Assembly: GCA_031316235.1 (NCBI GenBank)
Contig: JALDRA010000001.1
Span: forward strand, 1,320,001-1,352,000
Reading direction: 5' to 3'
From: Candidatus Scalindua sp.
Lineage (GTDB): Bacteria > Planctomycetota > Brocadiia > Brocadiales > Scalinduaceae
DNA: 32,000 nucleotides
The position numbers and the translations under genes were made by a program. This document shows positions 4,495 through 31,294 of the stretch, one piece after another; position 1 is the first letter of the stretch, and each line of letters opens with the position of its first letter. The notes under the pieces were generated by a model. It searched no databases. It worked only from the letters and a program-made list of their open reading frames with translations, and was not told where the DNA came from.

Positions 4495-4661
4495 TACTAT
4501 ACCTCCTGTTTTTATCTTGCTATTTGACAAAATAGTACCGACAAGATAGTTTCAAAGGCTAACACTATAACACAGGCGATGTTACGATATCAATTCAAAA
4601 CTGCTAAACCAAAAAGTAACCATAACTACTGGAATTGAACTTAAAGTTAGATTCAATGACT

Positions 4662-4883: not shown

Positions 4884-5964
4884 TTACCTGATAGATTCAG
4901 CCAGTCGTACCAGATTAATGAACTCATGCCGGTAACCAAATGGATCTTTCCCTGATGCAGTCTCTGCTAATTTGATCACCTCTTCGTATGTGAATTGACC
5001 GGTATATTCCCCGCCCCGCAGGAGTTGCCCGAATGCGGCTACCGAAGCAGCAAAGTGAATGTCACCGGGAACCTCATCTATCTGAGAATACTCATTTTTA
5101 CGATTGATGGGTGTATGAATCAGCCGGCTTTTTTCCGAATCCGGCAATTTGTAACGAATCTTCAAGAAAGCGTATTCATTGTCAAATGATTCGTTCGCAG
5201 CACCTTTCTCGCTTCATTGAGGTTGTCGATGTATGCGGCATTCCCGTTTCCGTTTTGTACAAGCTCCTGCATAAGGGCATCATTATTGTTTCCCTGCCTA
5301 AACCCCAGAATAGATAGGAAGATGCCTGTTTCCCTCTTTCTCTCCACAAAACCTTTAAACTCATCAGGATCCCGGATTCCTACATTAAAATCACCATCGG
5401 TAGCCAGTATCACCCGATTCAGACCTTCTGTATTGAAATTCGCCTCTGCGAGCTCATACGCTTTCCTTATCCCTTCCCCGCCAGCTGTTGATCCTCCAGC
5501 CTGCAATTGATCCAGGGCCCCTGAAATCTTGCCCTTGTCGGCTCCAGTACCGTTCCTGCTACCCCGGCATAAACTACGATAGCAACCGTATCGTCTTCAT
5601 TGAGAGTGTTGACAAGCAGGCGGAAGGAATTTTTCAATAAGGGTAATTTGTCATGCGAATCCATCGAACCGGAGACGTCTATGAGAAAGACCAGGTTTGA
5701 AACAGGTTTTTCCTCTGCGATACTATCATATCCCTTAATTCCTATGTGCAGCACCCTGGTATACTCATCTCATAATGGTTTTCGGATAAAATCCGAGATA
5801 AAATTGAGCGAGTAAAGTCCTCGGCACTTTTTGTCCGGGGTTACCTTCACCAAGATTTGGTTTCCGGTAAAGCCGAAAACCAAATCGGTTTTAGTATATT
5901 ACGCACCCTGTCCGGGAAGTTTCATTTCCGCCACAGTGTTTCCGTCGAGGCGCCGAATAACGTT
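4884..5964 (-). pseudogene. Decayed VWA-domain protein gene (YfbK-like, VWA + C-terminal DUF3520-type region)
   Basis: - Three listed ORF fragments (5467-5754, 5162-5506, 4884-5165) in different frames together read as a VWA protein.
- MIDAS context NLVFLIDVSGSMDS is present, followed by LQAGGSTAGGEGI, ILATDGDFNVG, and the C-terminal AFLKIRYKLPD...FAASVAAFGQLLRG...GYRHEFINLV.
- There are frameshifts near 5520-5545 and near 5930.
- An internal stretch between the KVL... and ...NEYAFLKIRYK regions is missing.
- The N-terminal ~200 aa are absent.
- Family-A copy A1 is inserted at 5759-5902. Confidence 0.8.
5759..5902 (+). mobile_element. Family-A MITE-like element, copy A1 (full length with middle module), flanked by an 8-bp target-site duplication
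   Basis: - GTATACTCATCTCATAATGG...GGTTTTAGTATATTAC.
- The identical octamer GCACCCTG abuts both ends (5751-5758 and 5903-5910).
- Deleting the element plus one octamer rejoins the VWA reading frame (...NFPDRVLHIGIKGYD...). Confidence 0.85.
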
Positions 5965-6535: not shown

Positions 6536-9520
6536 CTAACCGTCCGATACGTTACCTGCTTTTTTACTGAGTTTATATTCACTGATTTCATGGCCATATA
6601 AATTTACATACTCTGCCTCTTTTACCGGAACGAATTCTAACATGAAAATGCGTCCCCCGATTGTCTCTTCCATTCGCCTGATTTTATTTGAAACCAGCAC
6701 TTTCTTCGTAATATTTTTCCAGTGGGTTGAAATCTTATCATTAAGACTGCATTTCCAGCACTCCAGGAAATACCGCCCCGCATTATTTGTAAAGAGTATC
6801 GTACCGTCTCGTGCGATTCTCAACACAGGGTTTGGATTTTCGTTTGGAAAGGTTCCTAAACTCCTTGCAATTTCACCTGTCTTCACAAGGGTTGTAATAT
6901 CAACAAACGTAATAACCACGCCATCTATGATATTTTCTACCGTTCTGTATGGCAAAATACGCATATTATACCAGTGCTGGTCCTGAGTTTTTATGTTTTT
7001 CTCCTTCTGTATCAGCGTTCTCAGCACCTCCTGCGTATCGTTATAAAGAGTTTCATTTTCAAATTTAGTGTTAATATCACTGATTGGACGATTTATATCT
7101 GTCGGCCTGAAACTGAACAAAGAGGTTGCAGAGGGAGTAAATCGAACAACGTTGAGCCTCGTATCCAGAAAGATGGTGGCTATCTCTGTGCTTGCAAGGA
7201 GGTTATTGAGATCGTTGTTGGCGCGTGACAATTCGTTTACTTTGTTCTGGAGTTCTGAATTTACGGTCTCCAGCTCCTCGTTGGTTGATTGCTGCTCCTC
7301 CTTGGAGGTCTCCAGCTCCTCGTTCGTGGACTGCAGTTCCTCGTTCGTGGACTGCAACTCCTCATTGGTTGATTTAAGCTCCTCGTTAGCGGTCTCCAGC
7401 TCTTCAACGGCAGCCTGCAGATACTCTCTGGTCGATTGTAATTCCTGTTGCAGGGTAGTTATTTTCATATCTTCCTTTTTCGTTTTAGAAGAAGATATTT
7501 TTCCCTGGACAATTTTTTCCTGCGCTGATTTTTCCTCAAATATTACGATCATTAAGCCCTCTGTGTCATCAGCCGCAGCAAGTGGCCTGACAGTCAGGTC
7601 AATAGTCAGAAAAGTGTCATTGTACTTTATCTTCAGTCCGCAAGCAGTGACCGTTTCTCTTTTCCTGGCTATTTTGTGAAGAAGCGTAATGAGTTTGTAT
7701 CGCAGGTCATCATGTGCCATCTTTATGATATTAAAGCTGGGGACACCCACCGGTGTTAATAAATACTTGTATACCTGGCCATTGACATAGAGGACGTCAT
7801 GTTTTGTATTGATCACCACAAACGGAGGGGCGTATGCATTAATAACCTCCCTCTCTGCCTGCTGGTAAATATTAGTGCCTATGAGCATCCTGTTTCCATC
7901 CTGCTGCTCAAGGTCAATGCCTGTTCCTATCTTCTCGATTGAAATGGCAGGGAACCTCCCGGGACTTTCAATAAATGCTCCTTTTCGTTTATAAATTTTC
8001 CATTTGGAATTAACTACTGAAAAAATATCGGAAAATTCTCCTATGGTTTCAGAAGTACCGAGGAACAGATATCCATCCCTGTTGAGGGTATAATTGAAGA
8101 CAGGAAGTATTTCCTTCTGCAGATTCGTATCCATGTATATCAAGACATTCCTGCACGAGACCAGGTCCAGTCTTGAGAAGGGAGGGTCTTTAATGAGACT
8201 GTGGACAGCAAAAACCACCATTTCCCGGATCTGTTTTTTTATTTTATAGCCACCTTCTTCTTTTATAAAAAAATGATTTAATCTCTCCTCAGACACGTCT
8301 GCCGCAATACTATCAGGATAGATCCCCGCGCGGGCAAACTCTATAGCGTCGCTATCTATATCCGCGCCAAATAACTGTACACTGCAATTCCTTCCCATCT
8401 CAACTTTAAGCTCTGCAATGAGCATCGCTATCGAGTAAGCCTCTTCACCGGTAGCACAACCGGGGACCCATATACGGAGATTACACGTGGAGCTCCCGTT
8501 TTTCAAAAGAGAAGTGAGTACCTTTTCTTTAAGGATCTCAAAGGCGTCAGGATCTCTGAAAAAACTTGTAACTCCTATGAGCATGTCTTTGTACAGGGCT
8601 TCTACTTCACCAGGTTTTTCCCGGAGATACGTGAGATAATCTGATACCTTCTCAATCTGATGAACGGCCATTCGTCTCTCAATCCTTCTCCTAGTAGTAT
8701 TCTGTTTATAGTTGGAAAAATCATGACCTGTTTTTGCCCGGATCTGTAAAAGTATCTTTGTTATCGTATTCTGGTATGTTTGTTCTGAGGTACCAACTGC
8801 ATCCGGTTTTTCAATATAAGGATGTTTACTATATTTTATCAGTTCTCCTCCCATTTTTTCCACAGGCAGGATAAAATCAACAAGTCCGGTATTTATGGCA
8901 TTTCTTGGCATGCTGTCATATTTTGCCTGCTTTTCTGACTGTACCATGGTCATCCCGCCGGCACCTTTGATTGCCTTGAGACCAAGGGTACCATCTGTTC
9001 CGGTACCGGAGAGGACAATGCAGACTGCTTTCTCACCCTGATCTTCGGAAAGTGAGCGGAAAAAGAAATCAATGGGCAATCTGGCAGCATGAGTTTCAAG
9101 GGGGGTTATTAACTGAAAAGTGCGGTTCATAACAGCAACATCACTGTCAGGCGGATTCATATATACGGTGTCCGGCTCAATCTTCATTCCGTCTTTTATT
9201 TCCACTATCCTCATCTTCGTATATTTTGAAAGAAGAGAGCCCATAATGCTTTTATAGCTAGGGGCAAGGTGCTGGATAATCACAACGGCAAGGTTACTGT
9301 GAGCAGGCAGGTTGACAATGAACCCCTCAATGGCCTCAAGTCCTCCGGCAGAAGCACCTATCCCTACAACAGGGAAGTTCTTTTCCCTGTCACAGGCGCT
9401 CCCTGACGCCTTTCTTCCTGTCTTGACCCCGCTATTAACAGGCGAGGCGGTTTTTTTCTTGAGAGTACTCACCTTTTTTTCAGAACTCCTTTTCGTTTCT
9501 CTCTTTTTTTTATCGGCCAT
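6536..9520 (-). CDS. CheB methylesterase - CheR methyltransferase fusion with a coiled coil and two PAS-like domains (no kinase domain)
   Basis: - CheB-type VVGIGASAGGLEAIEGF.
- CheR SAM-binding RIWVPGCATGEEAYSIAMLI.
- The family-typical repeat EELQSTNEELQSTNEELETSKEE.
- PAS_10-type ...MRILPYRTVENIIDGVVITFVDIT, then a second PAS-like ENPNPVLRIARDGTILFTNNA.
- I start the gene at the ATG at 9520 (MADKKKRE), which has GAGGA 8 nt upstream. The ORF-track extension to 9736 has no support. Confidence 0.9.
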   Translation of the reverse strand: MADKKKRETKRSSEKKVSTLKKKTASPVNSGVKTGRKASGSACDREKNFPVVGIGASAGGLEAIEGFIVNLPAHSNLAVVIIQHLAPSYKSIMGSLLSKYTKMRIVEIKDGMKIEPDTVYMNPPDSDVAVMNRTFQLITPLETHAARLPIDFFFRSLSEDQGEKAVCIVLSGTGTDGTLGLKAIKGAGGMTMVQSEKQAKYDSMPRNAINTGLVDFILPVEKMGGELIKYSKHPYIEKPDAVGTSEQTYQNTITKILLQIRAKTGHDFSNYKQNTTRRRIERRMAVHQIEKVSDYLTYLREKPGEVEALYKDMLIGVTSFFRDPDAFEILKEKVLTSLLKNGSSTCNLRIWVPGCATGEEAYSIAMLIAELKVEMGRNCSVQLFGADIDSDAIEFARAGIYPDSIAADVSEERLNHFFIKEEGGYKIKKQIREMVVFAVHSLIKDPPFSRLDLVSCRNVLIYMDTNLQKEILPVFNYTLNRDGYLFLGTSETIGEFSDIFSVVNSKWKIYKRKGAFIESPGRFPAISIEKIGTGIDLEQQDGNRMLIGTNIYQQAEREVINAYAPPFVVINTKHDVLYVNGQVYKYLLTPVGVPSFNIIKMAHDDLRYKLITLLHKIARKRETVTACGLKIKYNDTFLTIDLTVRPLAAADDTEGLMIVIFEEKSAQEKIVQGKISSSKTKKEDMKITTLQQELQSTREYLQAAVEELETANEELKSTNEELQSTNEELQSTNEELETSKEEQQSTNEELETVNSELQNKVNELSRANNDLNNLLASTEIATIFLDTRLNVVRFTPSATSLFSFRPTDINRPISDINTKFENETLYNDTQEVLRTLIQKEKNIKTQDQHWYNMRILPYRTVENIIDGVVITFVDITTLVKTGEIARSLGTFPNENPNPVLRIARDGTILFTNNAGRYFLECWKCSLNDKISTHWKNITKKVLVSNKIRRMEETIGGRIFMLEFVPVKEAEYVNLYGHEISEYKLSKKAGNVSDG

Positions 9521-9913
9521 TTCGTTTCCTCTGTTTTTATGATGGCAAATGGTTAAAAAGCAACTACGGTATACGTAAAATCTCTGTAAGGCTTTTACCG
9601 TCGGAGAATAATTGAAATAAGAAAAAAATACAAGGGTAAAAACAGCAAAGTAACAGGTGTGTTTTTCCGGATTTGCTGCCCACAGAAAACAGAGTATTAA
9701 TGTCATCACCATGTTCCGGGAATAAAACGATAACAATGCCCTGATTATTCATGAAAAAGGAACACGAGCGTTTCATCTGTTGTGTCGGTATGAATGTTCA
9801 GTAAATATTTTATTTATTTAAGAAGGCCGTTTATGCAGGATTTTATCTCAATCAGGCAGAGCCCTTGAGCAAGCAAGGAGGATCACGCTGAGTACGTGCT
9901 ATAGAAGTGTCAT

Positions 9914-11476
9914 TTATTGAGTTTTTACCATTATTTTCCCACGGAGAATGCCGTATTGTTCTATCTTCATATTCAGGCTTGCACGGCTTATTCCGAGGTT
10001 TCTTGAAGTTATGGTTTTATTCCATTTTGCCTTGAGCAGTGTATGCTCGATGATTTCCCTTTCGACATATTTGAGAATGCCCTTTAGTTTTGTCCCCTTT
10101 CCATTCGCTTTAATAACTGGTTCGGAACAGGTGTTTATCCTTAACTGTTTTCTGAGAAGATCTGCATTGATAGTCCTTTCCTGAGCTGACATGATAACCA
10201 GCCGTTCAACAATGTTCTTCAGTTCCCGTACATTCCCCGGCCAATCATAAGCTACAAGCATTTTGAAGACATCCTGATCGATATCCTTTATTTCACCATT
10301 CTGTCCTTTTGTGTGGGAATCTAAAAAATGAAAGGCCAGTGGTATGATATCCTCTTTCCTGTTTCTCAGAGAAGGGGCAAAGAGAGGTACGGTATTCAGT
10401 CTATAGAACAGGTCTTTTCGGAACAGGCCTTGTCCGACCATCTCATCGAGTTTTCTATTTGTTGCAGCGATAATTCGGACATCGGTTTTTAATACCCTGG
10501 TACCTCCCACCCGGGAAAATGTTCCATGTTCCAGAATACGCAGGAGCTTGGCCTGGTTTTCCAAACTCATATCTCCGATTTCATCCAGGAATAAGGTTCC
10601 CCCGTCTGCAATCTGGAACAGCCCGTCTTTCTCCGCTACGGCACCGGTAAAGGATCCTTTTTCATGGCCGAATAACTCGGATGTCAGGAGTGCATCATTA
10701 AATGCAGAGCAATTCTGGATGATAAAGACCTTATCTTTACGGGGACTATTGTAATGTATGGCAGCCGCAAGCAACTCTTTTCCGGTACCGGTTTCTCCCT
10801 GGATCAAAACTGTTTTTTCTGTTTTTTCTATAAGTTCCAGCATTCTGAAAACCTTTTTCATTGCCGGGCTCACACCAATTAAATCCTTATACTTTTCTGA
10901 ATAGATCTTGTCCAGAAGAGATGCCCGTTTTTCCCTCATGATTTTCTGTTCCTGAAGCATCTCATAATAAATTATTACGTCCCTGGCTATCAGTTCAACA
11001 AAATCAATCACATCCTCTTGAGAGTGACCATTTGAACTTTTCAGACCCTCAAAATACTGTTCAGCCACTGTTACATCTAAACCAGCCTTTGACAGCTCTG
11101 TTAATTGAGCCCGATGATCCAGACCGTTGATTTTTGACAGCTTCATCCCTGTACCAATAATGGAACCAACATATTTCCCACTATTAACTATGACTGGAAC
11201 AACTATACAGTACAGACCTGCGTAACATTCGCAGCTGAAAGGTTTATGAGGTGTGTTACCCGGCTTGAGATATCTCTTTACAAATTCACGACAGTTCCGG
11301 ACACCTTCCTTTGACGTGTGTATGAAGTTGCAGAAAGGATTTGAAAAGTCTGAACACTCACCGACACGGTTACCAGACTCATCATAAATCTGAATATCCA
11401 TTCCCCACAACTTGCAGCAAACCTGCTTAAATATCCTGATCACGTTTGATTCCAAGATTTTATTCCAGAAAATCAT
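9914..11476 (-). CDS. Sigma-54-dependent transcriptional activator with a PocR-like N-terminal sensor domain
   Basis: - Walker A GETGTGKE.
- GAFTGA-type loop GSFTGA, then DGGTLFLDEIGDM.
- WPGNVRELKN.
- C-terminal Fis-type HTH (NKTITSRNLGISRASL).
- Cys-rich N-terminal segment FCNFIH...C-EF...CECYAGLYCIVVPV typical of PocR domains.
- ATG at 11476. The track's 11485 start is a TTG. Confidence 0.9.
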   Translation of the reverse strand: MIFWNKILESNVIRIFKQVCCKLWGMDIQIYDESGNRVGECSDFSNPFCNFIHTSKEGVRNCREFVKRYLKPGNTPHKPFSCECYAGLYCIVVPVIVNSGKYVGSIIGTGMKLSKINGLDHRAQLTELSKAGLDVTVAEQYFEGLKSSNGHSQEDVIDFVELIARDVIIYYEMLQEQKIMREKRASLLDKIYSEKYKDLIGVSPAMKKVFRMLELIEKTEKTVLIQGETGTGKELLAAAIHYNSPRKDKVFIIQNCSAFNDALLTSELFGHEKGSFTGAVAEKDGLFQIADGGTLFLDEIGDMSLENQAKLLRILEHGTFSRVGGTRVLKTDVRIIAATNRKLDEMVGQGLFRKDLFYRLNTVPLFAPSLRNRKEDIIPLAFHFLDSHTKGQNGEIKDIDQDVFKMLVAYDWPGNVRELKNIVERLVIMSAQERTINADLLRKQLRINTCSEPVIKANGKGTKLKGILKYVEREIIEHTLLKAKWNKTITSRNLGISRASLNMKIEQYGILRGKIMVKTQ

Positions 11477-11675
11477 AGGCTTCAATATATGGTGATTAAA
11501 GGCAAACTGCCCGGATATAAACTACTCTGTTTTATCAGTCATAACGTTCTTATATACCTGAGGATTAACAAGTCATTACCGCCATGCAGCAGCCAGGCAC
11601 TCCTGGCTCGACCTCGGATCATTCGTTCAGGCACCGATTGACCAGCTTACTCTCGTTTTTTTACCCCTCATTCAG

Positions 11676-11819
11676 GTAATATACTAAAACCTATTTGGTT
11701 TTCAGTTTTACCGGAAACCAAATCTTGGTTAATGGTATCCCCGGACAAAAAGCGCCGAGGGCTTTACTCGCTCAATTGTATCTCGGATTTTATCCGAAAT
11801 CCAGTATGAGATGAGTATC
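11676..11819 (-). repeat. Family-A element, copy A2 (full length with middle module)
   Basis: The reverse complement aligns end to end with A1 and also ends in AGTATATTAC. It begins 7 nt after the cytochrome c stop codon, sense-oriented to that gene. Confidence 0.85.
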
Positions 11820-11825
11820 TGTTCT

Positions 11826-12164
11826 CTACTTCTCTCCAAATGCCCTTACAACGGAAACCAGGGACTTAATCTCAGCTACGGTAAGTTTCTCCTTAAAGGG
11901 GAACATCTTTTCTTCGGTTCCATTTGTAATTTGTTCAATAATCTGCTCATCGGTAATCGAATCCTGAAACTCTTTGTCCGTAAAGTCCCGAGCCCCTAGC
12001 CCTTCTCCTAAATCAGTTTTTCCTTTCCCGTCTTCACCATGGCACGTTATACAGTGATTTTTGTATAATGTCTGTGCGTCAATTTCATCTGCCGTTATTT
12101 CCGGTACTGCGAAATATCCGATGGCAGCCTGTAAGACGATGACAACTATTACCCTCTGAAGCAT
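11826..12164 (-). CDS. Monohaem class I c-type cytochrome (112 aa, secreted)
   Basis: - Haem motif CITCHG.
- Distal Met context EEKMFPF.
- Hydrophobic N-terminal signal.
- AGGAGG 8 nt upstream of the ATG at 12164. Confidence 0.85.
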   Translation of the reverse strand: MLQRVIVVIVLQAAIGYFAVPEITADEIDAQTLYKNHCITCHGEDGKGKTDLGEGLGARDFTDKEFQDSITDEQIIEQITNGTEEKMFPFKEKLTVAEIKSLVSVVRAFGEK

Positions 12165-12265
12165 GTCAGTTTCCTCCTATTTCTCTATCGTATCGGTTAC
12201 GTTATTAAAACTGCGTTTAGTCGCTTTGCCAGCGTTCCTCAGTTCACACTCCATTGAAAACTGTT

Positions 12266-12628
12266 TTATTTATGACTGAGTGCCATGCGGACACTCTTTA
12301 ATAAGGTTTCCCGTTCTATAGGTTTTGATAGATAGTCGTAAGCACCCAAACGTTTGGCTTCAGACTCACCCTTGATATCGGGAGCCCCGGTGTGCAGGAT
12401 TACCGGACAGATGGGATCTCTTTTTCTTACCTCTTTCAAGACATCGATCCCTGTTTTCTCTCCCATATTGATGTCGGAAAGCACTAAATCGAAATCAGTC
12501 CCGGACATCTTTCCCATTGCATCGTCGTAGCTGCAGGCCGTAGATACATCGTAACCCTCACGGGAAAGAAGTATTTTAAGGGAAGTCAAAATAACCTCCA
12601 TATCATCAACGATAAGTATTTTGTCCAT
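12266..12628 (-). CDS. Single-domain response regulator (CheY-like receiver)
   Basis: - ILIVDD acidic pocket.
- Phospho-acceptor context LVLSDINMG.
- Conserved T (ILHTG) and K (YLSKP).
- ATG at 12628. The track start at 12631 is a TTG one codon upstream. Confidence 0.9.
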   Translation of the reverse strand: MDKILIVDDMEVILTSLKILLSREGYDVSTACSYDDAMGKMSGTDFDLVLSDINMGEKTGIDVLKEVRKRDPICPVILHTGAPDIKGESEAKRLGAYDYLSKPIERETLLKSVRMALSHK

Positions 12629-12914
12629 CAATCTAACTCTCTTCCATTACCTTCAAGTGTCACTGGGGTCTCAGTAAGACCATCAGCAAATCCTTTAAGA
12701 ATTAAAAAGGGCATACTTCATTTCCGTAAAAATCTCTCTTGAATCGAACCACAGGAAAGAAAAAACCGCATATCCATACACTGCTGCGTTCATCCGCAGT
12801 TACTGAGTTATGGTAACTTCCTGAAAGGCTTTATAATCAGCGCTCCTTTCATCTTATTATTTCCCTGCCAACCCACAATCTCAAATAGTACCAGTATTAC
12901 AGATGAAGCAGATA

Positions 12915-13074
12915 GTATACTAAAACCGATTTGGTTTACGGTTTTCCCGTCTGAACGGCAGGGCAGGCTGGAAACCAAATCCTGGTGAGGTATCCCCGGA
13001 CAAGGCGCCGAGGGCTTTACCCGGGTAAAATAGTTTTTGGATTTTACCCGAAAACTCTTACGAGATGAGTATAC
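12915..13074 (-). repeat. Family-A element, copy A3 (variant subfamily with an enlarged right hairpin and a different left hairpin)
   Basis: It has the same termini and middle module. The right hairpin arms GATTTGGTTT/AAACCAAATC enclose an extra inner hairpin (CCGT-TCAG-ACGG). The left arm forms a new 10-bp stem, CGGGTAAAAT/ATTTTACCCG. Confidence 0.8.
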
Positions 13075-13095
13075 AAAAACAGAAGTATATGCATA

Positions 13096-13110
13096 ACAAA
13101 ACATATGCCA
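13096..13110 (-). promoter_or_regulatory. Candidate -24/-12 (sigma-54-type) promoter P_X, reading towards the receiver and cytochrome c genes
   Basis: - The minus strand reads TGGCAT-ATGTT-TTGT, matching the TGGCAC-N5-TTGC consensus with exact GG-N10 spacing but GT rather than GC at -12.
- The surrounding 20-mer (13092-13111) is 18/20 identical to 16619-16638. Confidence 0.45.
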
Positions 13111-13442
13111 AAAAATGAGATCTGGTTCAGTTTATACCCACTCTGAGGAAAAGAACGTATTATAACCTTGAATCGAAGGGGGGAGCTGTTCGCATTCGAC
13201 GGGATATCAGCTGATGGTCATTATGGAATACAGAGGACGTATGTAATTTTTTAACTCCTGCCTGATTTACCGGTTAAGGAGGAGAAGGTATTCTGCAGCC
13301 AGTTTGATTAAGCGGAAAGAGAAGAGTCCAATGCAGGTTTTCGTGATGGGGTAAGACCCGTACCGAAAGCAGGAGGTGACAGATACAGTATGTTACTATT
13401 TTTTCTGGTTTTTCACCATAGCTGTTTCACAAATTGAAAGAA

Positions 13443-13496
13443 AGTATAGCATGTTACACTTATGTAAGCCGTTACACATGTGCAGACCGCTACACT
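13443..13496. promoter_or_regulatory. Array X: three tandem 18-bp dyad-symmetric repeats (candidate activator UAS)
   Basis: - The units are AGTATAGCATGTTACACT, TATGTAAGCCGTTACACA and TGTGCAGACCGCTACACT.
- They keep 7/9, 6/9 and 5/9 dyad pairs.
- The array is the reverse-complement homologue of 16271-16324.
- It lies 45 bp beyond the stop of the PAS/sigma-54 activator gene. Confidence 0.5.
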
Positions 13497-13540
13497 AATG
13501 CGTCCGGCACTCGATGGGTATTGACCTGTTACCTTCTTTA

Positions 13541-15466
13541 TTATTCTTTTATACTGTGCTTTTTCATCAATTTGTAGATTGTCACACGATGAACGCCAAG
13601 CATCCGTGCTGCCTTGGCCTTGTTCCAGCCACTTTTTTCTAATGCTTTGACGATTTGATTCCGATCTTTCAGATTGGCTGTTTCTTTCGCTTGCCTGTCA
13701 CGATTCCTCACATTGTCAAAATCTGACGGCAAATTTTCTATGGTGATGCATGATTTGGTACAAGTGACAAAAGCATATTCCATTGTGTTATAGAGCTGTC
13801 TTATATTCCCCGGCCATCGGTAGTCCATAAATCTCTTTAAAACAGTTGCGCTTACCGATTCAATGTTTTTGTGTAACCGTATATTAAGTTTTTTTATAAA
13901 ATACTCTATCAGAAGCGGAATGTCTTCAGATCTGTCCCTGAGAGGAGGCATTGTAATTTCCACTACCTTTAACCGGTGATAGAGGTCTTCCCTGAATTTC
14001 CCCTGAGTAACCTTTCTTCGAAGATCCTGATTCGTGGCAGCTATTATCCTGACATCAACTTTGATGGGAACCGAGTCCCCAACACGTTCAAAGATTTTTT
14101 CCTCAAGGATTCTTAATAAACGCAATTGCATCGTGTGCGATATGTCTCCTATTTCATCCAGAAAGATAGTACCGCCGTCAGCCTTCTGAAACCTTCCAAC
14201 CCTGTCACTGACAGCACCGGTAAATGAGCCCTTAACGTGACCAAACAGTTCGCTCTCCAGGACATTTTCAGACAAAGAGGAACAGCTTACCACCACAAAA
14301 GGTTTGTTCTGCCCCCCCTTTTCATAGTAGTGCAATGCTTCGGCTACCAGCCCCTTTCCTGTACCGTTTTCACCCGTAATCAACACCGTTGTCGATGTTC
14401 CTGACAATGCCTCAATCAAAGAAAAAATCTTGTGCATGCCTCCGCTTTTGCCTACGATGTTCTGCAGCCTCTGCCGCTCCAGCAAATTATCCTCAAGGAT
14501 AGCAAGCCGGGTTTCATCTTTTACGACCAGAGTACAACCGGCAAATTGTCCCCTGGTGTCTAAAATCGGGTTTGTTGTTATACTGACCAGGCACCTGGAA
14601 CATTCAAAGCGGTCTCTGTGAGCGGGAAGCTTTGTCTTCAGTGTCTCCGTTACCGCCTGCAGACATTCACCTCCACAACTTTTTATGAGCGTTTCAAACC
14701 TTCTACCCCTGGCCTTTTTGATATCGGGTAAGCCGCAGATTCTTCTTGCTGAATCATTGAATTCTGCTATTCTCTGCTCACTATCCAGCAGAATAATGCC
14801 GTCCCTCATACTCTTAAAGATTGCATCAAGGTTTTGTTTATGATTCAGACTCTCGAGAAAAGCTGCCTTGATCTTATCCTCGGCCTGCTTTTGCCTGGTA
14901 ATGTCGGTAACCATTGCCATACATTGCCGGGAACACCTCATTTCATCATATTTAACCGTACAATCGATTCTTGCATGGAACTGGGTGCTGTCTCTCCTTA
15001 TCATAACCAAATCACATACCATGTTCTTTGTATTTTTAAACAGATGATTACGCAGCAGGTAGTATTTGTCTTGATCAGCCCTGGCAATGAATTTTGAAAA
15101 TGGTTGTGCGATCAACTGCCTTTGCTCTGTTCCCAGCATTACCGCTCCCGTCAAATTGGCCTCCTGGATCAATCCTTTTTCATTTATCGTAAAATATCCA
15201 GCCGGTGCATGGTCATACAGAAAAGTATACTTGTCTCTTGAGCTCTCCAGATCTCCCTGTGCCTTACGCAGCTCCTCATTCTGCATCTCCAGCTCAATCT
15301 GGTGCACCTGCAATTCATAAGCCAACCTGCAGGCATCCTCGTTTGACATTTTGAGGACATCCGCATTTAACAGATCCCCTTTCAGATTCGTTTTGGATTT
15401 GAGCTTTCTCTCTGCTATCTGGCGTAGTTCAGAGAATTTTTCATGGTTATATTCTTCTTTTTTCAT
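13541..15466 (-). CDS. Sigma-54-dependent transcriptional activator with an N-terminal coiled coil and two PAS domains (no receiver domain)
   Basis: - ELQVHQIELEMQNEELR motif followed by PAS-like regions.
- Walker A GENGTGKG.
- GSFTGA loop, then DGGTIFLDEIGD.
- WPGNIRQLYN.
- C-terminal HTH (NKAKAARMLGVHRVTIYK). Confidence 0.9.
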   Translation of the reverse strand: MKKEEYNHEKFSELRQIAERKLKSKTNLKGDLLNADVLKMSNEDACRLAYELQVHQIELEMQNEELRKAQGDLESSRDKYTFLYDHAPAGYFTINEKGLIQEANLTGAVMLGTEQRQLIAQPFSKFIARADQDKYYLLRNHLFKNTKNMVCDLVMIRRDSTQFHARIDCTVKYDEMRCSRQCMAMVTDITRQKQAEDKIKAAFLESLNHKQNLDAIFKSMRDGIILLDSEQRIAEFNDSARRICGLPDIKKARGRRFETLIKSCGGECLQAVTETLKTKLPAHRDRFECSRCLVSITTNPILDTRGQFAGCTLVVKDETRLAILEDNLLERQRLQNIVGKSGGMHKIFSLIEALSGTSTTVLITGENGTGKGLVAEALHYYEKGGQNKPFVVVSCSSLSENVLESELFGHVKGSFTGAVSDRVGRFQKADGGTIFLDEIGDISHTMQLRLLRILEEKIFERVGDSVPIKVDVRIIAATNQDLRRKVTQGKFREDLYHRLKVVEITMPPLRDRSEDIPLLIEYFIKKLNIRLHKNIESVSATVLKRFMDYRWPGNIRQLYNTMEYAFVTCTKSCITIENLPSDFDNVRNRDRQAKETANLKDRNQIVKALEKSGWNKAKAARMLGVHRVTIYKLMKKHSIKE

Positions 15467-15614
15467 TATATATTACAAAGAGCTGAAATTACTCGTATAG
15501 ACCAAAGGCTCACGCCGCCTTTCGATACCGCGGATCATGAGAAGCGCAGAAAACCGCTCCTGAGCAGAAAGATATAGCAGCCTCCTTTTATCCTGAAGCT
15601 AATACCGATCCACA

Positions 15615-15699
15615 TATACTCATCTCATAATAGTTTTCGGATAAAATCCGAGATAAATTTGAGCGAGTCTACCTTCACCAGGATCTGGTTTCGTATATA
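15615..15699 (+). repeat. Family-A element, copy A4 (left arm intact, right hairpin excised)
   Basis: - TATACTCATCTCATAATAGTTTTCGGATAAAATCCGAGATAAATTTGAGCGAGTCTACCTTCACCAGGATCTGGTTTCGTATATA.
- The sequence between the two GGTTT direct repeats of the full element is missing. Confidence 0.8.
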
Positions 15700-15856
15700 T
15701 TCAGGGTTAGCAGTTTTTATTATACAATGGTTGTCAATATGACAAAGTATGACAATCCGATATCTTCTTCACACTCAGCCTGGAGAGGTAAACAGCAGAT
15801 TTGATCTTTCGGTGCGGCTGAAAAAAGCGCTTTTGATCACAGGTTAAATATACTGT

Positions 15857-16105
15857 TTATCTGTTTTGACAGGACTGAGAAATTAACCGGAGCTCTTCAT
15901 TCTGCATCTCCAGCTCAATCTGGTGCACCTGAAGCTCGTGAGCCAGCCTGCGTACTTTTCCATCTGAGAGCTTCTCTATTGGTATAATAGAGGGATCGAG
16001 GCTTGCTTCTGCTTTTTTTCTCAGACCGGAAACGGTTTTTTCTGAATTTGAATCTCTTTCTTTATTCAGTCCTTTTAAGCGCAGACTAACTGCTGAATCT
16101 CGAAG
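15857..16105 (-). pseudogene. Start-less N-terminal fragment of a second PAS-type sensor/activator gene
   Basis: - The open frame ...LRKKAEASLDPSIIPIEKLSDGKVRRLAHELQVHQIELEMQNEELRLISQSCQNR* has no start codon.
- 15893-15955 is a close nucleotide copy of 15267-15329 inside the intact activator gene (CTCATTCTGCATCTCCAGCTCAATCTGGTGCACCTG).
- The frame stops immediately after the motif. Confidence 0.6.
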
Positions 16106-16270
16106 TTATTACAGAATATCTCAACAGAGAGAAAGCGGGAATAGTTCCCGTTTATTGCGTATAAGCAGATAACAGGAAACTCCTTCACTCTATAGATTCT
16201 TAAAATGTTGTGAAATCATTACCATAATTCAAGGTTTTTTGGAGGTCTGATGGACCGGAAAAACAACTTT

Positions 16271-16324
16271 TATGTAGCCATTTACGTGACTATAGCCGTT
16301 TGCACAAGTGTAGCATGCTACACT
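16271..16324. promoter_or_regulatory. Array Y: three tandem 18-bp dyad repeats (candidate activator UAS)
   Basis: The units are TATGTAGCCATTTACGTG, ACTATAGCCGTTTGCACA and AGTGTAGCATGCTACACT. The third is a perfect 18-bp palindrome. The array is homologous in inverted orientation to 13443-13496. Confidence 0.5.
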
Positions 16325-16552
16325 TTATCCTGCTTTGCGGATATCCTTACCCCCTTTAGAGATACCTCTCAGGACACCATGCCTGCTTTCGTTATGGTTT
16401 ACACTGCACTCTTCCCTGCACTCCTGACCTCCTCTTGCAAAGCATTCCATGATTATTTAACTTATTATTCCAGTTTGAGTTAATGAGCGAAATTGATTTA
16501 CTGAGTACAAAATGAATCTCTCCTGTTTTTCATAGATGCCACCATTTACCCC

Positions 16553-16581
16553 AGTAGCTCCACCGGTATAGCTACTTTTTT
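16553..16581 (+). terminator. Hairpin plus T5 (intrinsic-terminator-like) about 40 nt upstream of P_Y
   Basis: AGTAGCT-ccaccggtat-AGCTACT followed by TTTTT. The half-sites also resemble the TAGC/GCTA core of the dyad arrays, so a protein-binding role is an alternative. Confidence 0.4.
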
Positions 16582-16619
16582 CCCGGCAGAGTAATTACCG
16601 TACGGAAATATTTCAATGT

Positions 16620-16634
16620 TGGCATGTATTTTGT
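16620..16634 (+). promoter_or_regulatory. Candidate -24/-12 (sigma-54-type) promoter P_Y, reading towards the zinc-ribbon gene
   Basis: TGGCAT-GTATT-TTGT. It sits inside the 20-mer TTGGCATGTATTTTGTTATG, which is shared with 13092-13111 (minus strand). Confidence 0.45.
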
Positions 16635-16635
16635 T

Positions 16636-16685
16636 ATGGATCAGCTATGGATCAGCTATGGATCAGCTATGGATCAGCTATGGAA
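16636..16685 (+). repeat. Tandem repeat: 11-bp unit ATGGATCAGCT x 4 plus a partial fifth
   Basis: Four perfect head-to-tail copies are read directly. Each holds a GATC and an AUGGAU (GGA) motif. The array lies between P_Y and the SD of the gene starting at 16733. Confidence 0.95.
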
Positions 16686-16732: not shown

Positions 16733-16978
16733 ATGAAAAAGACTCATAAAAGGTTAAACGCAAAGAGAAAAAACAGGGAAACAAAAATCAAATCTGATAA
16801 TTGTGATTTTCGTGTAAGTAAACGTGACAAGATGAGGGTATGTTTAAAATGCGGAAAACAATTTTCCAGTAAAGGACCCCATAATCGTATATGTGTTAAA
16901 TGTGATTTGGTTAATCTAAGAACAGGTACAACCACTTATTCATTATGGTTGAGGCTTGCAGAAGTTACGGAATTCTAG
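16733..16978 (+). CDS. Small basic zinc-ribbon protein (81 aa)
   Basis: - ATG at 16733 with AAGGA 7 nt upstream.
- Lys/Arg-rich N-terminus.
- CLKCG-x14-CVKC four-Cys knuckle pair.
- The track ORF from 16616 runs through the tandem repeat and is probably a spurious extension. Confidence 0.6.
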   Translation: MKKTHKRLNAKRKNRETKIKSDNCDFRVSKRDKMRVCLKCGKQFSSKGPHNRICVKCDLVNLRTGTTTYSLWLRLAEVTEF

Positions 16979-17274: not shown

Positions 17275-17376
17275 TTTTGAATTGGGCAACTCTTGATCAG
17301 AATTGCACTCCCTGGAAGAGGTTAATGCCGCGCTTTATGGATCCATGCCGCACATTACGAGAGAGACAAAAAAAAC

Positions 17377-17474
17377 GAAGCGAGTAAAGTCCTCGGCACT
17401 TTTTGTCCGGGGATACCTTCACCAGGATTTGGTTTCCGGTAAAACCGGAAACCAAATCGGTTTTAGTATATTAC
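17377..17474 (+). repeat. Family-A element, copy A5 (left arm missing; middle module plus a perfect 15-bp right hairpin)
   Basis: GAAGCGAGTAAAGTCCTCGGCACTTTTTGTCCGGGGATACCTTCACCAGGATTTGGTTTCCGGTAAAACCGGAAACCAAATCGGTTTTAGTATATTAC. Confidence 0.85.
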
Positions 17475-17600
17475 TTCTCGATGGCAGATAATCAGGACGC
17501 TATCCTACCGAATAGTGGCCTCGCTTTATGAGACACATCTCTCCTCATGTAACCAGAAAATAATCTGCTGTTAACGATTTTTTCTGTTATAATCAGCGTA

Positions 17601-17737
17601 TGAACGAAAACTACTCATCTACGGCGTTGCTGCAATAATGACGTAATCCTCACGTACATAATAAGTACGCTCCGGTTACGTAATTATTTCGCGACTTGTG
17701 CCTGGGCAGTTTTCATCAATCGCGGGATTTTCGTTCA
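17601..17737 (+). repeat. Family-B palindromic element, copy B1
   Basis: - Terminal inverted repeats TGAACGAAAA...TTTTCGTTCA.
- Internal long stem AATAATGACGTAATCC / GGTTACGTAATTATT.
- Homologous over ~137 bp to 24722-24860. Confidence 0.8.
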
Positions 17738-17974
17738 CACACCAGGTACCATAAAATATGCGATATTTTTTTCTGGTGAAACAAAGTGCTGCCAGGAATC
17801 TAAAGAGGCGGATCCAATGAGGCTTTTTGTAATTTCCCCCGGATAACCGTCTCTACGTGTGACCTCTTTATACTATAACGACCAGTAATATGACGCACTG
17901 TTCTGAAGCGGAAAATTCCAGGAGATAAAATTTTTCGCTTCGAGAAATCTAACAGTAACCGGTGAGAAAAAAAA

Positions 17975-22814: not shown

Positions 22815-23030
22815 TCACACTATACCTTCTAAGAAGTTCAAAAATAATTACAGGTAGCTCTCAAAAGAATACATTTCACTAAAGAGGTTTTCAGAGAGTA
22901 ATACCCCGGCAGCTCCAGAAAAAAAGCTGCTGTTCATTCCAGCCAGGAAGGCCCATTCATATTCCACATATTCTGATTTAATTTATCCTCTTTGTCAATT
23001 ATCTTTTCTCTGGAATGTTTTGTCTTTCAG

Positions 23031-23144
23031 GTACACGAAAACCGATTTGGTTTTGGATTTTCCTAAAAACCAAGGCCTGGTTGCCGGTATACTCGCTCAG
23101 TTTTTTCTCGAATTTTACCCGAAATCCAGTATGAGATGAGTATA
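23031..23144 (-). repeat. Family-A element, copy A6 (no middle module; divergent hairpin loops)
   Basis: - The reverse complement reads TATACTCATCTCATACTGGATTTCGGGTAAAATTCGAGAAAAAACTGAGCGAGTATACCGGCAACCAGGCCTTGGTTTTTAGGAAAATCCAAAACCAAATCGGTTTTCGTGTAC.
- It starts 11 nt after the K+ channel stop codon, in sense orientation. Confidence 0.8.
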
Positions 23145-23155
23145 AGATGAGCATA

Positions 23156-23986
23156 TTAGATTTTTGCACCGCAGAATTTACAGTATACGGCATCGTTTTC
23201 ATGACCCTCGGCGCTGCACTCCGGGCATGCCTGGGTAGAAACCTTCTTCTTCACCATAGCCTGCGTTATTTCCGCCGTCATGATACCGGTAGGAACCGCA
23301 ATAATTGCAAATCCCAGAATCATGACCAATGCTGCCAGAGCCTGCCCCAGACTTGTCTCTGGAGATATATCGCCATACCCTACAGTCGTAAGTGTTACAA
23401 TAGCCCAGTAAACACTTCGCGGTATACTCGTAAAGCCGCTCTCTTCACTTTCTATGAGATACATGAGCGAACCTACTATTATCACAATGTTAAAAACGAC
23501 AAACAGGAAGACTGTTATCTTACGACGGCCTGCACGTAAAGCCTCTATGAGGATATTGGCCTCACCAAGATAATAGACAAGTTTCAGAACTCGAAAGATG
23601 CGAAGAACCCTGAGCAATCTGATTACCAGGAGATACTGACTGCCCGGGAACAACAGGCTGAGATACGTAGGAGCTATTGCCAACAGATCCACTACCCCGA
23701 AAAAGCTTTTTACATACATGAACGGACGGCCGACACAGAGCAATCGCAAACTGTACTCAATTGTGAAGAGGATAGTAAAGATCCATTCAATCCAATAGAG
23801 TAAGCCGCCATATCGGCTGCTTACAGCGCTTATGCTGTCAAGCATTACGGCGGTAACGCTCAGCACTATGCAGCATAACAATACTATATCAAACGTTTTG
23901 CCTAACGGAGTATCCGCCTCAAAAATTACTTCATGGAGAACAGATCTCCATTTCCTGTCAGATAACCTATTTTTGTCTGGTTGCAT
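23156..23986 (-). CDS. Voltage-gated K+ channel (six-TM Kv-type) with a C-terminal zinc-ribbon tail
   Basis: - S4 with Arg at every third position (RLLRVLRIFRVLK).
- Selectivity filter TLTTVGYGD.
- C-terminal CPECS-x12-CKFCG. Confidence 0.85.
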   Translation of the reverse strand: MQPDKNRLSDRKWRSVLHEVIFEADTPLGKTFDIVLLCCIVLSVTAVMLDSISAVSSRYGGLLYWIEWIFTILFTIEYSLRLLCVGRPFMYVKSFFGVVDLLAIAPTYLSLLFPGSQYLLVIRLLRVLRIFRVLKLVYYLGEANILIEALRAGRRKITVFLFVVFNIVIIVGSLMYLIESEESGFTSIPRSVYWAIVTLTTVGYGDISPETSLGQALAALVMILGFAIIAVPTGIMTAEITQAMVKKKVSTQACPECSAEGHENDAVYCKFCGAKI

Positions 23987-24698: not shown

Positions 24699-24721
24699 GA
24701 TACATCCTCTTTTATCGTGGT

Positions 24722-24860
24722 TGAACGAAAACTACCCATCTACTGCGTTGCGGCAATAATTCAGTAATCCTCATGTACAATATGGTACGCTCCGGTTACA
24801 AAATTATTACGTTTCTTGTGTATCTGGACCGTTTTGAATCAGCCACAGGGTTTCCGCTCA
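24722..24860 (+). repeat. Family-B palindromic element, copy B2 (more degenerate)
   Basis: - The first ~90 nt are nearly identical to B1 (TGAACGAAAACTAC-CATCTAC-GCGTTGC-GCAATAAT...GTACGCTCCGGTTAC).
- It fills the whole hutI-cyclodeaminase spacer.
- Its last 3 nt (TCA, 24858-24860) are the hutI stop codon. Confidence 0.8.
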
Positions 24861-26138
24861 AGTACCTTTTATCTGCAATTGTTCCCTTCCTTTATCAAAT
24901 ACGAGATTACCGTTTTTGATGACTTTTTCGACACAGCTTACCCCTGCATGATAGGGAATAAATTCATATGAAGGAAACTCAAGGATTACGACATCACCGG
25001 CTTTTCCCACATCGAGGCTGCCGATTTTATCTGCACGGTCAACTGCTGCGGCACCATTTATCGTTAACGCCGTAATCGCCTCTTCAATCGTAATCTCCAT
25101 AGAGAGGGTGGCCAATGCACAGACAAGCGGGATCGATTCCGAAAAGCAGCTTCCCGGGTTGAAATCAGTTGCCAGTGCGACCGCACAGCCTTGATCGATA
25201 ATATAGCGTCCTCGAGCGTAAGGCTGCCGGAGACAGAATGCAGTTCCCGGAAGCAGCGTTGCAATGACTCCCTCTTTTGCCATTCTGGTAATACCTTTGT
25301 CTGAGGCGTGGAGCAGATGGTCGGCTGAAACTGCCCCGAGTTCGGCCGCCAGTTCAGCTCCTCCGAGCGGGAATATTTCATCGGCATGCATCTTCACCTT
25401 GAACCCGAGAGTCTTCGCTTTGAGGAGTAACCGCTGAGATTGAGCGAGCGAAAAGACATCTTTTTCACAAAAGACATCGCAAAATTCTGCAAGATTTCGC
25501 TGGGCAACCTGAGGCATAACGATATCTGCCACATAATCTATATAGTGATCTGCGCCCCCTTTACAATCGACCGGAACGGCATGGGCACCAAGAAAGGTTC
25601 TGACGACATCCACTGCATGCCGCCTGTCAAGAGCCTTCATCGCTTCCAGCTGCTTGATCTCAGCCTGTTCATCCAGGCCGTAACCGCTCTTCCCTTCAAC
25701 GGTTGTTACTCCGAATGACAGCATCGAATCAAGGCGTTTTATGCCTAATGCTATCAGCTCTTCCCAGGTGGCTTCCCGTGTAGCCTTGACCGTACTGGCG
25801 ATCCCGCCACCGCGTTTCATTATTTTCATATAATCGTCACCACGCAGCCGCCAGGAAAACTCTTCTGCCCTATAGCCTGCAAACAGAAAATGGGTATGAG
25901 AATCCACAAACCCAGGTAACACTGACTTTCCCGCCGCATCAATACTCTTGATCCCGGTTTGCTCAAATCTCTTCAGAACCTCTCCACTCTTACCAACAGC
26001 CGTTATTACTCCATTCTCGACAACGAGCGTCCCGTCTTCGATTATGTGTAAATCGGCCATGGCCTTTCCCTGTTTGGCTTTCGAGCCACTACAGGTCACC
26101 AGTTGAGAAGCATTTTTAATTATTATGCTATTCTGCAT
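24858..26138 (-). CDS. hutI: Imidazolonepropionase
   Basis: - PGFVDSHTHFLFAG metal-binding motif.
- HADE and ATDFNPGS motifs of the HutI amidohydrolase family.
- The ATG at 26138 (MQNSIIIKNASQLVTC) fits the family N-terminus. The track start at 26171 is a TTG. Confidence 0.9.
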   Translation of the reverse strand: MQNSIIIKNASQLVTCSGSKAKQGKAMADLHIIEDGTLVVENGVITAVGKSGEVLKRFEQTGIKSIDAAGKSVLPGFVDSHTHFLFAGYRAEEFSWRLRGDDYMKIMKRGGGIASTVKATREATWEELIALGIKRLDSMLSFGVTTVEGKSGYGLDEQAEIKQLEAMKALDRRHAVDVVRTFLGAHAVPVDCKGGADHYIDYVADIVMPQVAQRNLAEFCDVFCEKDVFSLAQSQRLLLKAKTLGFKVKMHADEIFPLGGAELAAELGAVSADHLLHASDKGITRMAKEGVIATLLPGTAFCLRQPYARGRYIIDQGCAVALATDFNPGSCFSESIPLVCALATLSMEITIEEAITALTINGAAAVDRADKIGSLDVGKAGDVVILEFPSYEFIPYHAGVSCVEKVIKNGNLVFDKGREQLQIKGT

Positions 26139-31044: not shown

Positions 31045-31158
31045 TATATATCTCCTTACTTTGAGTGATCTGAAAATTCTGCTTCCCCTTGATTGCCATA
31101 CTCCCGGGAAAGCTTTCACCAGTTTACAATCGATACAAATCCATAATTGCAGTCCTGA

Positions 31159-31270
31159 TATACTCATCTCATACTGGATTTCGGATAAAATCCGAGATAA
31201 AATTGAGCGAGTATACCTTCACCAGGATTTGGTTTCCGGTAAAACCGAAAACCAAATCGGTTTTAGTATA
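31159..31270 (+). repeat. Family-A element, copy A7 (no middle module)
   Basis: - TATACTCATCTCATACTGGATTTCGGATAAAATCCGAGATAAAATTGAGCGAGTATACCTTCACCAGGATTTGGTTTCCGGTAAAACCGAAAACCAAATCGGTTTTAGTATA.
- It lies 24 nt beyond the glutamine synthetase stop, antisense to it. Confidence 0.85.
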
Positions 31271-31294
31271 CCTGTTTCTTACCCGGCGGAAAAA

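Follow-up and report, generated by a model that had tools for sequence, protein, structure and literature searches.

How does a single activator gene come to stand between two outward-facing promoter modules, and does it serve both? The question is raised by a stretch of 32,000 nt from Candidatus Scalindua sp. (assembly GCA_031316235.1, contig JALDRA010000001.1, positions 1,320,001–1,352,000; hereafter the window), in which the gene of a 641-aa sigma-54 activator with two PAS domains (13541–15466, minus strand) is bracketed by two modules, X and Y. Each module consists of an array of three 18-bp units and, further out from the activator gene, a box of the −24/−12 promoter type. Scalindua is a marine anammox planctomycete, and for want of pure cultures and of genetic manipulation, the regulation of genes in anammox bacteria has hardly been studied. 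From a comparison of the locus with those of its relatives we conclude that it is probably an ordinary sigma-54 cassette built around a bacterial enhancer-binding protein (bEBP), of which the window contains one and a half copies.

Two triple-dyad arrays and two boxes flank one activator gene

Both arrays, the 20-mer that forms the two boxes and the outward orientation are present in the window. Array X (13443–13496, minus strand) begins 45 nt past the activator stop codon and comprises three head-to-tail 18-bp dyads with the half-site TGTAGC/TGTAAC. Array Y (16271–16324, plus strand) follows no gene; its third unit, AGTGTAGCATGCTACACT, is the sole perfect 18-bp palindrome within the window. 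The letters that an earlier note on this DNA had quoted for the six units match exactly, and so do its counts of dyad pairs out of nine (X1 5, X2 6, X3 7, Y1 4, Y2 3, Y3 9). Summed over three units, the dyad score of X (18) is the highest in the window, and Y reaches 16. The site core, TGTAGC-N2-GCTACA, occurs in three copies per array and is repeated every 16–18 bp. With three dyads 295–332 nt upstream of each box and an adjacent activator gene that encodes an HTH_8 domain, the arrays are laid out as enhancers would be, and we propose array X as an upstream activating sequence.

Array Y could be read differently, namely as the coding part of a real 77-aa hydrophobic protein (16250–16483) in which the 18-bp period represents a six-residue repeat. 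The frame is open from an ATG and its translation resembles two hydrophobic helices, yet this open reading frame (ORF), whose conservation the earlier note had singled out as a check on its proposal, is not conserved in any relative and matches no Pfam family. The corresponding frame in X has no start codon and stops ~9 codons (27 nt) past the array, no comparable ORF covers the array in L001, L004, L006, L009, L010, L012 or L013 (loci of related activators, described below), and coding leaves both the dyad symmetry and the perfect 18-bp palindrome unexplained. We therefore find this reading hardly credible.

Box X (TTGGCATATGTTTTGTTATG; 13092–13111, core 13096–13110, minus strand) predicts a transcription start near 13084, and box Y (TTGGCATGTATTTTGTTATG; 16619–16638, core 16620–16634, plus strand) one near 16646. 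Both positions of this shared 20-mer had been given correctly before; the array-to-box gaps of 333 and 296 bp had not, and recount to 332 and 295 nt. As had been noted, the boxes point outward, X to the genes of a CheY-like receiver and a cytochrome c, and Y to an 81-aa zinc-ribbon gene. GG at −24, the exact GG-N10 spacing, the TTG and a GT in place of GC at −12 are found in both. Where 0.39 matches to TGGYAY-N5-TTGY would be expected, the window contains three, namely the two boxes and a site at 22217 within a long ORF. Box X is the single forward GGYAY-N5-TTG of its intergenic region, 432 nt past the stop codon, and box Y is 91% identical to the corresponding box of S. japonica (L012) and 82% to that of Brocadiaceae S225 (L010).

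If TTGGCA is taken as a −35 element, the boxes become sigma-70 promoters and the arrays operators of an ordinary regulator. A sigma-70 scan indeed scores box X at 10/12 as TTGGCA-16-TATACT, but the region holds 10 such sites where 10.5 are expected, and by inspection neither box Y nor the boxes of other cassettes have a comparable −10 element at the right distance. The feature that does not vary across cassettes is GG-N10-G with the TTG run, which is sigma-54 geometry, and the box is tied to genes of sigma-54 activators. A sigma-70 assignment is thus very improbable, and we continue with the boxes as candidate sigma-54 promoters.

The activator itself has the domains that such promoters would call for. 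Pfam assigns it PAS-PAS (PAS_9/PAS), Sigma54_activat (1.4e-63), AAA_lid_14 and HTH_8 (1.7e-11). The GSFTGA loop and the Fis-type helix-turn-helix (HTH) claimed for it were both found; the loop, Walker A (GENGTGKG) and Walker B (DEIGD) are all intact, in its relatives as well. A sigma-54-interacting regulator from a metagenome-assembled genome of Candidatus Scalindua sp. at NCBI shares 100% identity with the protein; exact-sequence look-ups of the activator and of protein P0002 returned no record.

The arrangement recurs behind related activators

The loci of related activators compared here were taken from a genome collection or reached through further homologues of the protein. In 12 Scalindua-type loci, two to four tandem dyads lie directly 3′ of the activator stop codon. 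The closest homologue on a readable contig, in Scalindua sp. AMX11 (L001), is 78% identical and stands in a locus syntenic with the window (838-aa gene, GCS2, M20 peptidase, activator, through to CheB-CheR-PAS). Past its stop codon follow AGTGTAGCCACTTACACA AGTGTAGCAGGCTATACT and then TTCTTTCACTTTGTGAAAC, the post-array motif shared with X, and ~340 nt beyond the array stands the box TTTGGTATATTTATTGCTT, with its GG at L001 12616–12617 and, here, the canonical GC at −12 (TTGC). The operon after this box comprises a receiver, a 73-aa gene, a 65-aa zinc-ribbon gene, a second receiver orthologous to window 12266–12631, and more genes. Arrays of TGTAGC dyads follow the stop codon of the orthologous activator in the syntenic AMX11 and SCAELEC01 (L001, L005) and in RBC_AMX3 (L006), each with a box ~340 nt beyond the array; RBC_AMX3 has three clean units, AGTGTAGCCATTAACATG twice and then AGTGTAGCAGGCTACACT. 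P6-7 (L004), Brocadiaceae S225 (L010) and S. japonica (L012) keep this TGTAGC plan, with three or four units at 16–18-bp spacings. A zinc-ribbon gene comes immediately after the box in L010; in L012 the order after the box is receiver, zinc-ribbon gene, receiver. Array Y shares 74–75% identity with the arrays of L006, L010 and L012, and its first unit (TTTTATGTAGCC) is the same as in L010 and L004.

We counted boxes in 10 regions between an activator stop codon and the next gene, the region for Y being counted from 16236 as no activator gene precedes it. All 10 contain exactly one forward GGYAY-N5-TTG and none in reverse, against 0.28 of 10 in shuffled sequences. The box lies 386–432 nt past the stop codon and 84–478 nt before the next co-directional gene, so that in 10 of 10 cassettes its orientation and its distance upstream of a gene are those of a sigma-54 promoter. 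The stop-to-promoter offset of ~400 nt is near-constant even across paralogs whose spacers cannot be aligned. The base following TTG is T in seven of these cassettes, C in two and A in one.

The position of the arrays would also suit a role in RNA, in which a long hairpin with a short U-run terminates or stabilises the activator mRNA, as its sole or an added function. Arrays invariably begin 5–60 nt past the stop codon, most cassettes have CTTT(T/C/A) after the last unit, and the folds are significantly stable in L015 (z = −5.8), L009 (−3.4) and L006 (−2.4). The two arrays of the window, however, lack such stability (X, z = −1.6; Y, z = −1.3), and a scan for terminators calls none at the short U-tracts. 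A structured RNA had been named beforehand as a finding that would overturn the proposal, and a scan of the whole window at Rfam gathering thresholds gave 0 matches. Orthologues keep the half-site while uncompensated changes break the pairing, as in X3 (TGTAAC/CTATAC). A hairpin leaves unexplained why there are three equal units and why the half-site changes with the HTH helix, and array Y has no gene before it whose mRNA it could end. We give an RNA role, sole or added, little credence, and as the sole function a hairpin is unlikely; the arrays are better read as DNA sites for the activator.

Relatives from metagenomes retain the box

Because GGYAY-N5-TTG was partly derived from the cassettes on which it was scored, with only L014, L015 and the metagenome set being independent of it, we made a separate test on metagenome sequences. 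A profile of the C-terminal 160 residues of the activator (A4) yielded 80 metagenome loci, 58 of which are distinct and have at least 450 nt downstream. The box occurs in forward orientation within 600 nt downstream in 38 of these 58 and in reverse in none, compared to 1.8 in shuffled sequences. The two closest loci, L016 (71%) and L017 (64%), have three TGTAGC units past the stop codon and a box at +390 and +404, respectively. In distant relatives from soils and sediments, the box is found +124 to +300 past the stop codon, compared with ~400 nt in Scalindua. Dyads in this broad set are in modest excess in the first 100 nt past the stop codon, with 2.4 per 100 nt against 0.9–1.8 in later bins; the exact array pattern ACAAGTGTAGCNNGCTAYACT had 0 matches in the metagenomes.

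In 40 metagenome boxes, TTG is followed by C in 22, T in 9, A in 5 and G in 4 (non-C in 18 of 40). On these counts GT at −12, which the earlier note had pointed out, appears to be a normal variant in this activator family and not an oddity. The comparison also indicates that the family characteristically has a co-directional promoter of putative sigma-54 type behind its activator genes. The earlier proposal of a sensor-activator with dyad sites and −24/−12 promoters is thus supported: arrays follow the activator gene in the Scalindua-type loci, and boxes recur in 10/10 of the cassettes and 38/58 of the metagenome loci.

Half-sites change with the recognition helix

A site bound by the adjacent activator should be kept in orthologues and change where the specificity of the activator changes, and this is the pattern seen, although in few independent events. 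PAS-PAS activators of the window type, with the recognition helix HRVT(I/L)YK(L/M/V)MKK, are followed by TGTAGC arrays in nine loci. The ~52% identical paralogs of L009 and L013 have the helix HRATIY(K/N)KMKQ and three 18-bp TGTCGC units each, for example CGTGTCGATATCGACACA and ACTGTCGCATGCGACACT. The two receiver-type paralogs differ again: in L014 (array AGTGTAAAATTTTACAGA), the helix SRTNIYLKMEE goes with TGTAAA, and in L015 (array AGTGTGCATTGCACACT), GRRTIYLKIKE goes with TGTGCA. Such co-variation of half-site and helix is what cognate binding sites would show, and it supports the arrays as targets of the activators that precede them.

Module Y is an orphan second copy

The earlier note had described two target promoters placed around one activator. 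The comparative data support the two promoters; they do not support a mirror-image pair. X is the orthologue of the module in AMX11 and RBC_AMX3, and Y an orphan second copy. In an alignment of seven sequences, spacer X (13112–13442, minus strand, ~330 nt) is 68–69% identical to its L001 and L006 orthologues just past the array, where Y reaches 19–25%, and 34–56% identical further on, with short conserved islands including CCTGATGYTTTTCAGG and CATACAACYCATC kept among relatives. Spacer Y (16325–16618, plus strand, ~295 nt) is unlike that of every other cassette save for ~85 nt before the box. Compared segment by segment in the same alignment, X and Y are 67% identical in the array and 82% in the box, and 19–48% in all else. 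Their similarity around the box stretches ~85 nt upstream; the local alignment there scores 23, compared to 11 ± 1.3 for dinucleotide shuffles, none of which (0 of 500) reached 23. The shared islands reported before, CCTGCTTTCG and ACTCTTC, were found in both spacers, and the argument built on them, that selection acts on the sites, is supported: array (67–75%) and box (82–91%) are kept while the spacer lies at a background of 19–48%, the signature that such selection would leave.

There is no intact activator gene before Y. What adjoins it is a truncated activator N-terminus of ~59 codons (15887–16063, minus strand), which tblastn matches to the activators of L001, L004, L006, L012, L009 and L013 with E values of 1e-14 to 3e-20. 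With its 5′ end ~200 bp from array Y, the fragment runs into ~9 codons of unrelated sequence before a stop. At the DNA level it is 88% identical to 15267–15330, and it keeps the canonical IPIEKLSD...ELQVHQIELEMQNEELR better than do the first 50 residues of the intact gene. We tried plus-strand 16041–16235 as a decayed activator 3′ end and rejected it: tblastn gave only E = 0.6–9, and DNA alignments with the 3′ ends of six activator genes did not surpass those of shuffled sequences. The zinc-ribbon gene has also changed place. In AMX11 it belongs to the single operon behind the activator, and in the window it has its own inverted module across the activator; the window lineage has thus rearranged or duplicated the cassette. 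Module Y would then be either what is left of a second complete cassette that lost its activator or the product of a segmental duplication that took in array, spacer and box.

Only a fragment of an activator is found near Y, so the surviving activator most probably serves both modules, as judged from half-sites that are identical and recognition helices that are near-identical. Among the best 120 homologues listed, the only protein on the 4.15-Mb contig of the window is the activator itself, a weak hint that a second close paralog is absent from the genome.

Alternatively, Y could be a non-functional relic whose array and box persist as the break-up of the cassette is recent, with the zinc-ribbon gene being expressed otherwise or not at all. 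The absence of an intact activator, the adjoining fragment and the poor dyads Y1 and Y2 (4/9 and 3/9 pairs) would fit such decay, as would a spacer that cannot be aligned with any other cassette. An 11-bp tandem repeat (TATGGATCAGC × 4.5; 16635–16684, plus strand; Tandem Repeats Finder, 100% matches, score 100) has moreover grown over the predicted start. It begins inside the final 4 nt of box Y, spans the predicted start and the early 5′ untranslated region, and is not found at the corresponding place in the S225 (L010) and S. japonica (L012) cassettes. Against this stand the signature of selection given above, the third unit of Y, which is the best dyad of all, and a zinc-ribbon ORF that is intact and conserved. 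The recognition helix of the surviving activator is, furthermore, essentially that of the activators that precede such modules elsewhere. We consider a relic unlikely and favour Y as a second promoter of the surviving activator.

Predicted target genes

The first gene after box X encodes a single-domain CheY-like receiver of 121 aa (12266–12631, minus strand; Pfam Response_reg, 1.2e-26), orthologous to L001 14015–14394 in the operon behind the AMX11 activator. The second gene of the X unit encodes a c-type cytochrome of 112 aa (11826–12164, minus strand; Pfam Cytochrome_CBB3, Cytochrom_C). The target gene of Y encodes the 81-aa zinc-ribbon protein (16733–16978, plus strand; CxxC-X13-CxxC), which has no Pfam family and for which no described family reached threshold in family searches. 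Its homologues in L001 (65 aa), L010 (83 aa) and L012 (81 aa) likewise follow an activator gene with array and box. This target is kept across four species, with an intact ORF in the window. The four genes, at window 16733–16978, L001 13707–13904, L010 from 1148 and L012 9422–9667, have the motif CLKCG-X13-RICxKC in common. The CxxC-X13-CxxC spacing does not agree with the DUF164/FlgZ motif described in PMC3372290. FlgZ, a larger zinc-ribbon protein, stabilises RpoN in Helicobacter (PMC3372290).

Proposed mechanism and its weighing

bEBPs bind enhancer dyads as dimers, form AAA+ hexamers and loop the DNA to the sigma-54 holoenzyme, where ATP hydrolysis opens the promoter. For the locus studied here, we propose that each dyad of an array would bind one activator dimer via the Fis-type HTH, and that three adjacent dimers would nucleate an active AAA+ hexamer in the manner of NorR. 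The hexamer would loop ~300–340 bp to the sigma-54 holoenzyme in a closed complex on the −24/−12 box and open the promoter by ATP hydrolysis, with the PAS domains gating activator activity on a signal. The predicted outputs are a receiver and cytochrome c transcript from ~13084 (minus strand) for X and a zinc-ribbon transcript from ~16646 (plus strand) for Y. The near-constant array-promoter distance of 300–340 bp may, as an idea, reflect looping without a sharp protein-induced bend.

Several observations weigh against this reading of the locus. With up to two mismatches, TGGCAC-N5-TTGCW is found 14 times against 12.9 expected, so the canonical consensus alone is at chance level and the promoter assignment rests on conservation and context. 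The −12 element of both boxes is GT, not GC. An array-promoter distance of ~300–340 bp exceeds the typical 80–200 bp. Two of the Y units are the weak dyads described above, and the expansion of the 11-bp repeat at the predicted Y start could mean that Y is decaying. The co-variation of half-site and helix is drawn from four clades and few independent events, and the box pattern is in part circular outside L014, L015 and the metagenome set. Finally, no RpoN-box peptide was found in the sequences examined, which cover 32 kb of this genome and the loci of relatives. Indirectly, an rpoN gene is favoured by the dozens of Scalindua proteins that have a Sigma54_activat domain. The genome paper of Scalindua profunda does not mention sigma factors, and Planctomycetes are reported, at the level of the phylum, to have RpoN often (PMC3372290).

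More tentatively, and as a possibility that we would not yet favour, the design may be Scalindua-wide: a self-contained cassette in which each paralog is accompanied by a triple-dyad enhancer right behind its stop codon, a promoter at a length-constrained offset of ~400 nt, 386–432 nt across 12 cassettes, and a −12 element relaxed to TTG(T/A/C). If so, the constant length would suggest that looping has a geometry independent of an IHF-type bend, and the array might also supply the hairpin that terminates the activator mRNA. Among the paralogs, helix and half-site would be linked by a readable code, and Y would be a second promoter that came to one activator once a cassette broke up.

An enhancer with a sigma-54 promoter is already a standard design, and what is gained is therefore annotation and testability, not a new principle. 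In Scalindua the design has been undescribed until now; here its local traits are triple 18-bp dyads placed where the activator gene ends, a T at −12, the ~400-nt offset and the orphan module. The locus and its relatives lead to concrete predictions for one Scalindua activator family, with the site TGTAGC-N2-GCTACA in three copies, the promoter TGGYAT-N5-TTGT, and single-domain receivers, a small zinc-ribbon protein and a c-type cytochrome as predicted targets. Paralogs with differing half-sites, in addition, constitute a natural data set on how a Fis-type HTH reads DNA.

Neighbouring genes and repeats

Relative to its AMX11 and RBC_AMX3 orthologues (L001 counterpart 10001–12214), the window activator is 96 residues shorter, and L001 10384–10915 has no counterpart in it. 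Its first 50 residues are aberrant, with an 8-residue insertion and loss of the IPIEKLSD motif; sliding identity gave no sign that the protein is a chimera of two paralogs. Upstream of the gene, an island at 15716–15763 is 90% identical to AMX11 (L001 9853–9900) and holds the palindrome TTGTCAATATGACAA as well as a further TGACAA and a perfect TATAAT on the activator (minus) strand. It may represent the activator's own promoter and operator.

Two further minus-strand genes lie beyond the X unit, those of a PocR-sigma54-HTH_8 activator (9914–11485) and of a CheB-CheR-PAS protein (6536–9736), both named from Pfam domains. Reading of the sequence behind the PocR-type activator gene revealed neither array nor box. 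The CheB-CheR-PAS gene contains a 21/42-nt tandem repeat at 7265–7402, and a 761-aa ORF (2245–4530) contains three internal copies of ~380 nt (2252–2633, 2810–3191 and 3894–4271) that are 60–65% identical; both are coding repeats.

Between genes, a dispersed repeat of ~125–165 nt is built of hairpin modules, varies in its internal inserts and is bounded by TATACT...AGTATA. At least seven copies occur in the 32 kb (5759–5902, 11673–11822, 12909–13074, 15596–15692 (partial), 17372–17474 (partial), 23028–23162 and 31144–31274); the repeat has no Rfam match and looks like a miniature mobile element. The copy at 12909–13074 (minus strand) begins ~10 nt past the predicted X start and is regarded as context, not as a functional part; L001 has a copy at the same relative place (12657–12800) in opposite orientation. 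A second dispersed repeat of ~140 nt, with copies that are 78–84% identical, is found at window 17598–17742 and 24714–24861 and at L001 15698–15811 and 16273–16409.

Comparison with known systems

A close mechanistic parallel is NorR at E. coli norVW, where, as here, three consecutive dyad sites lie upstream of a sigma-54 promoter and the regulator combines a sensory N-terminus with an AAA+ domain and an HTH. All three NorR dyads are required, which has been interpreted as three dimers giving rise to one hexamer (PMC2831303). The resemblance is mechanistic only. NorR senses nitric oxide by a GAF domain, whereas the window activator has two PAS domains and no GAF and thus does not belong to the NorR family, and the NorR site core is GT-N7-AC compared to TGTAGC-N2-GCTACA. 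Unlike in NorR, the array here stands right behind its activator gene and would act on a co-directional downstream operon ~300–340 bp away.

Systems of the NtrC/NifA type share with the locus the GG at −24, the TTG at −14 to −12, their exact spacing and a GAFTGA-type loop in the activator. The NifA site TGT-N10-ACA recalls the TGT...ACA dyads of the arrays, and some nif promoters have TGGTAT or TGGCAT at −24. The Scalindua-type cassettes depart from the NtrC/NifA paradigm in replacing the C at −12 by T or A in 8 of 10 cases, and in units that stand strictly head-to-tail.

TyrR boxes (TGTAAA-N6-TTTACA) are, like the units here, 18-bp dyads in adjacent multiples, and the Scalindua paralog of L014 uses TGTAAA-N2-TTTACA. 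TyrR has no sigma-54 contact loop and works on sigma-70 promoters, unlike the window activator with its intact GSFTGA loop. TyrR is related to bEBPs, binds as dimers and hexamerises, a parallel that has been drawn for NorR as well (PMC2831303).

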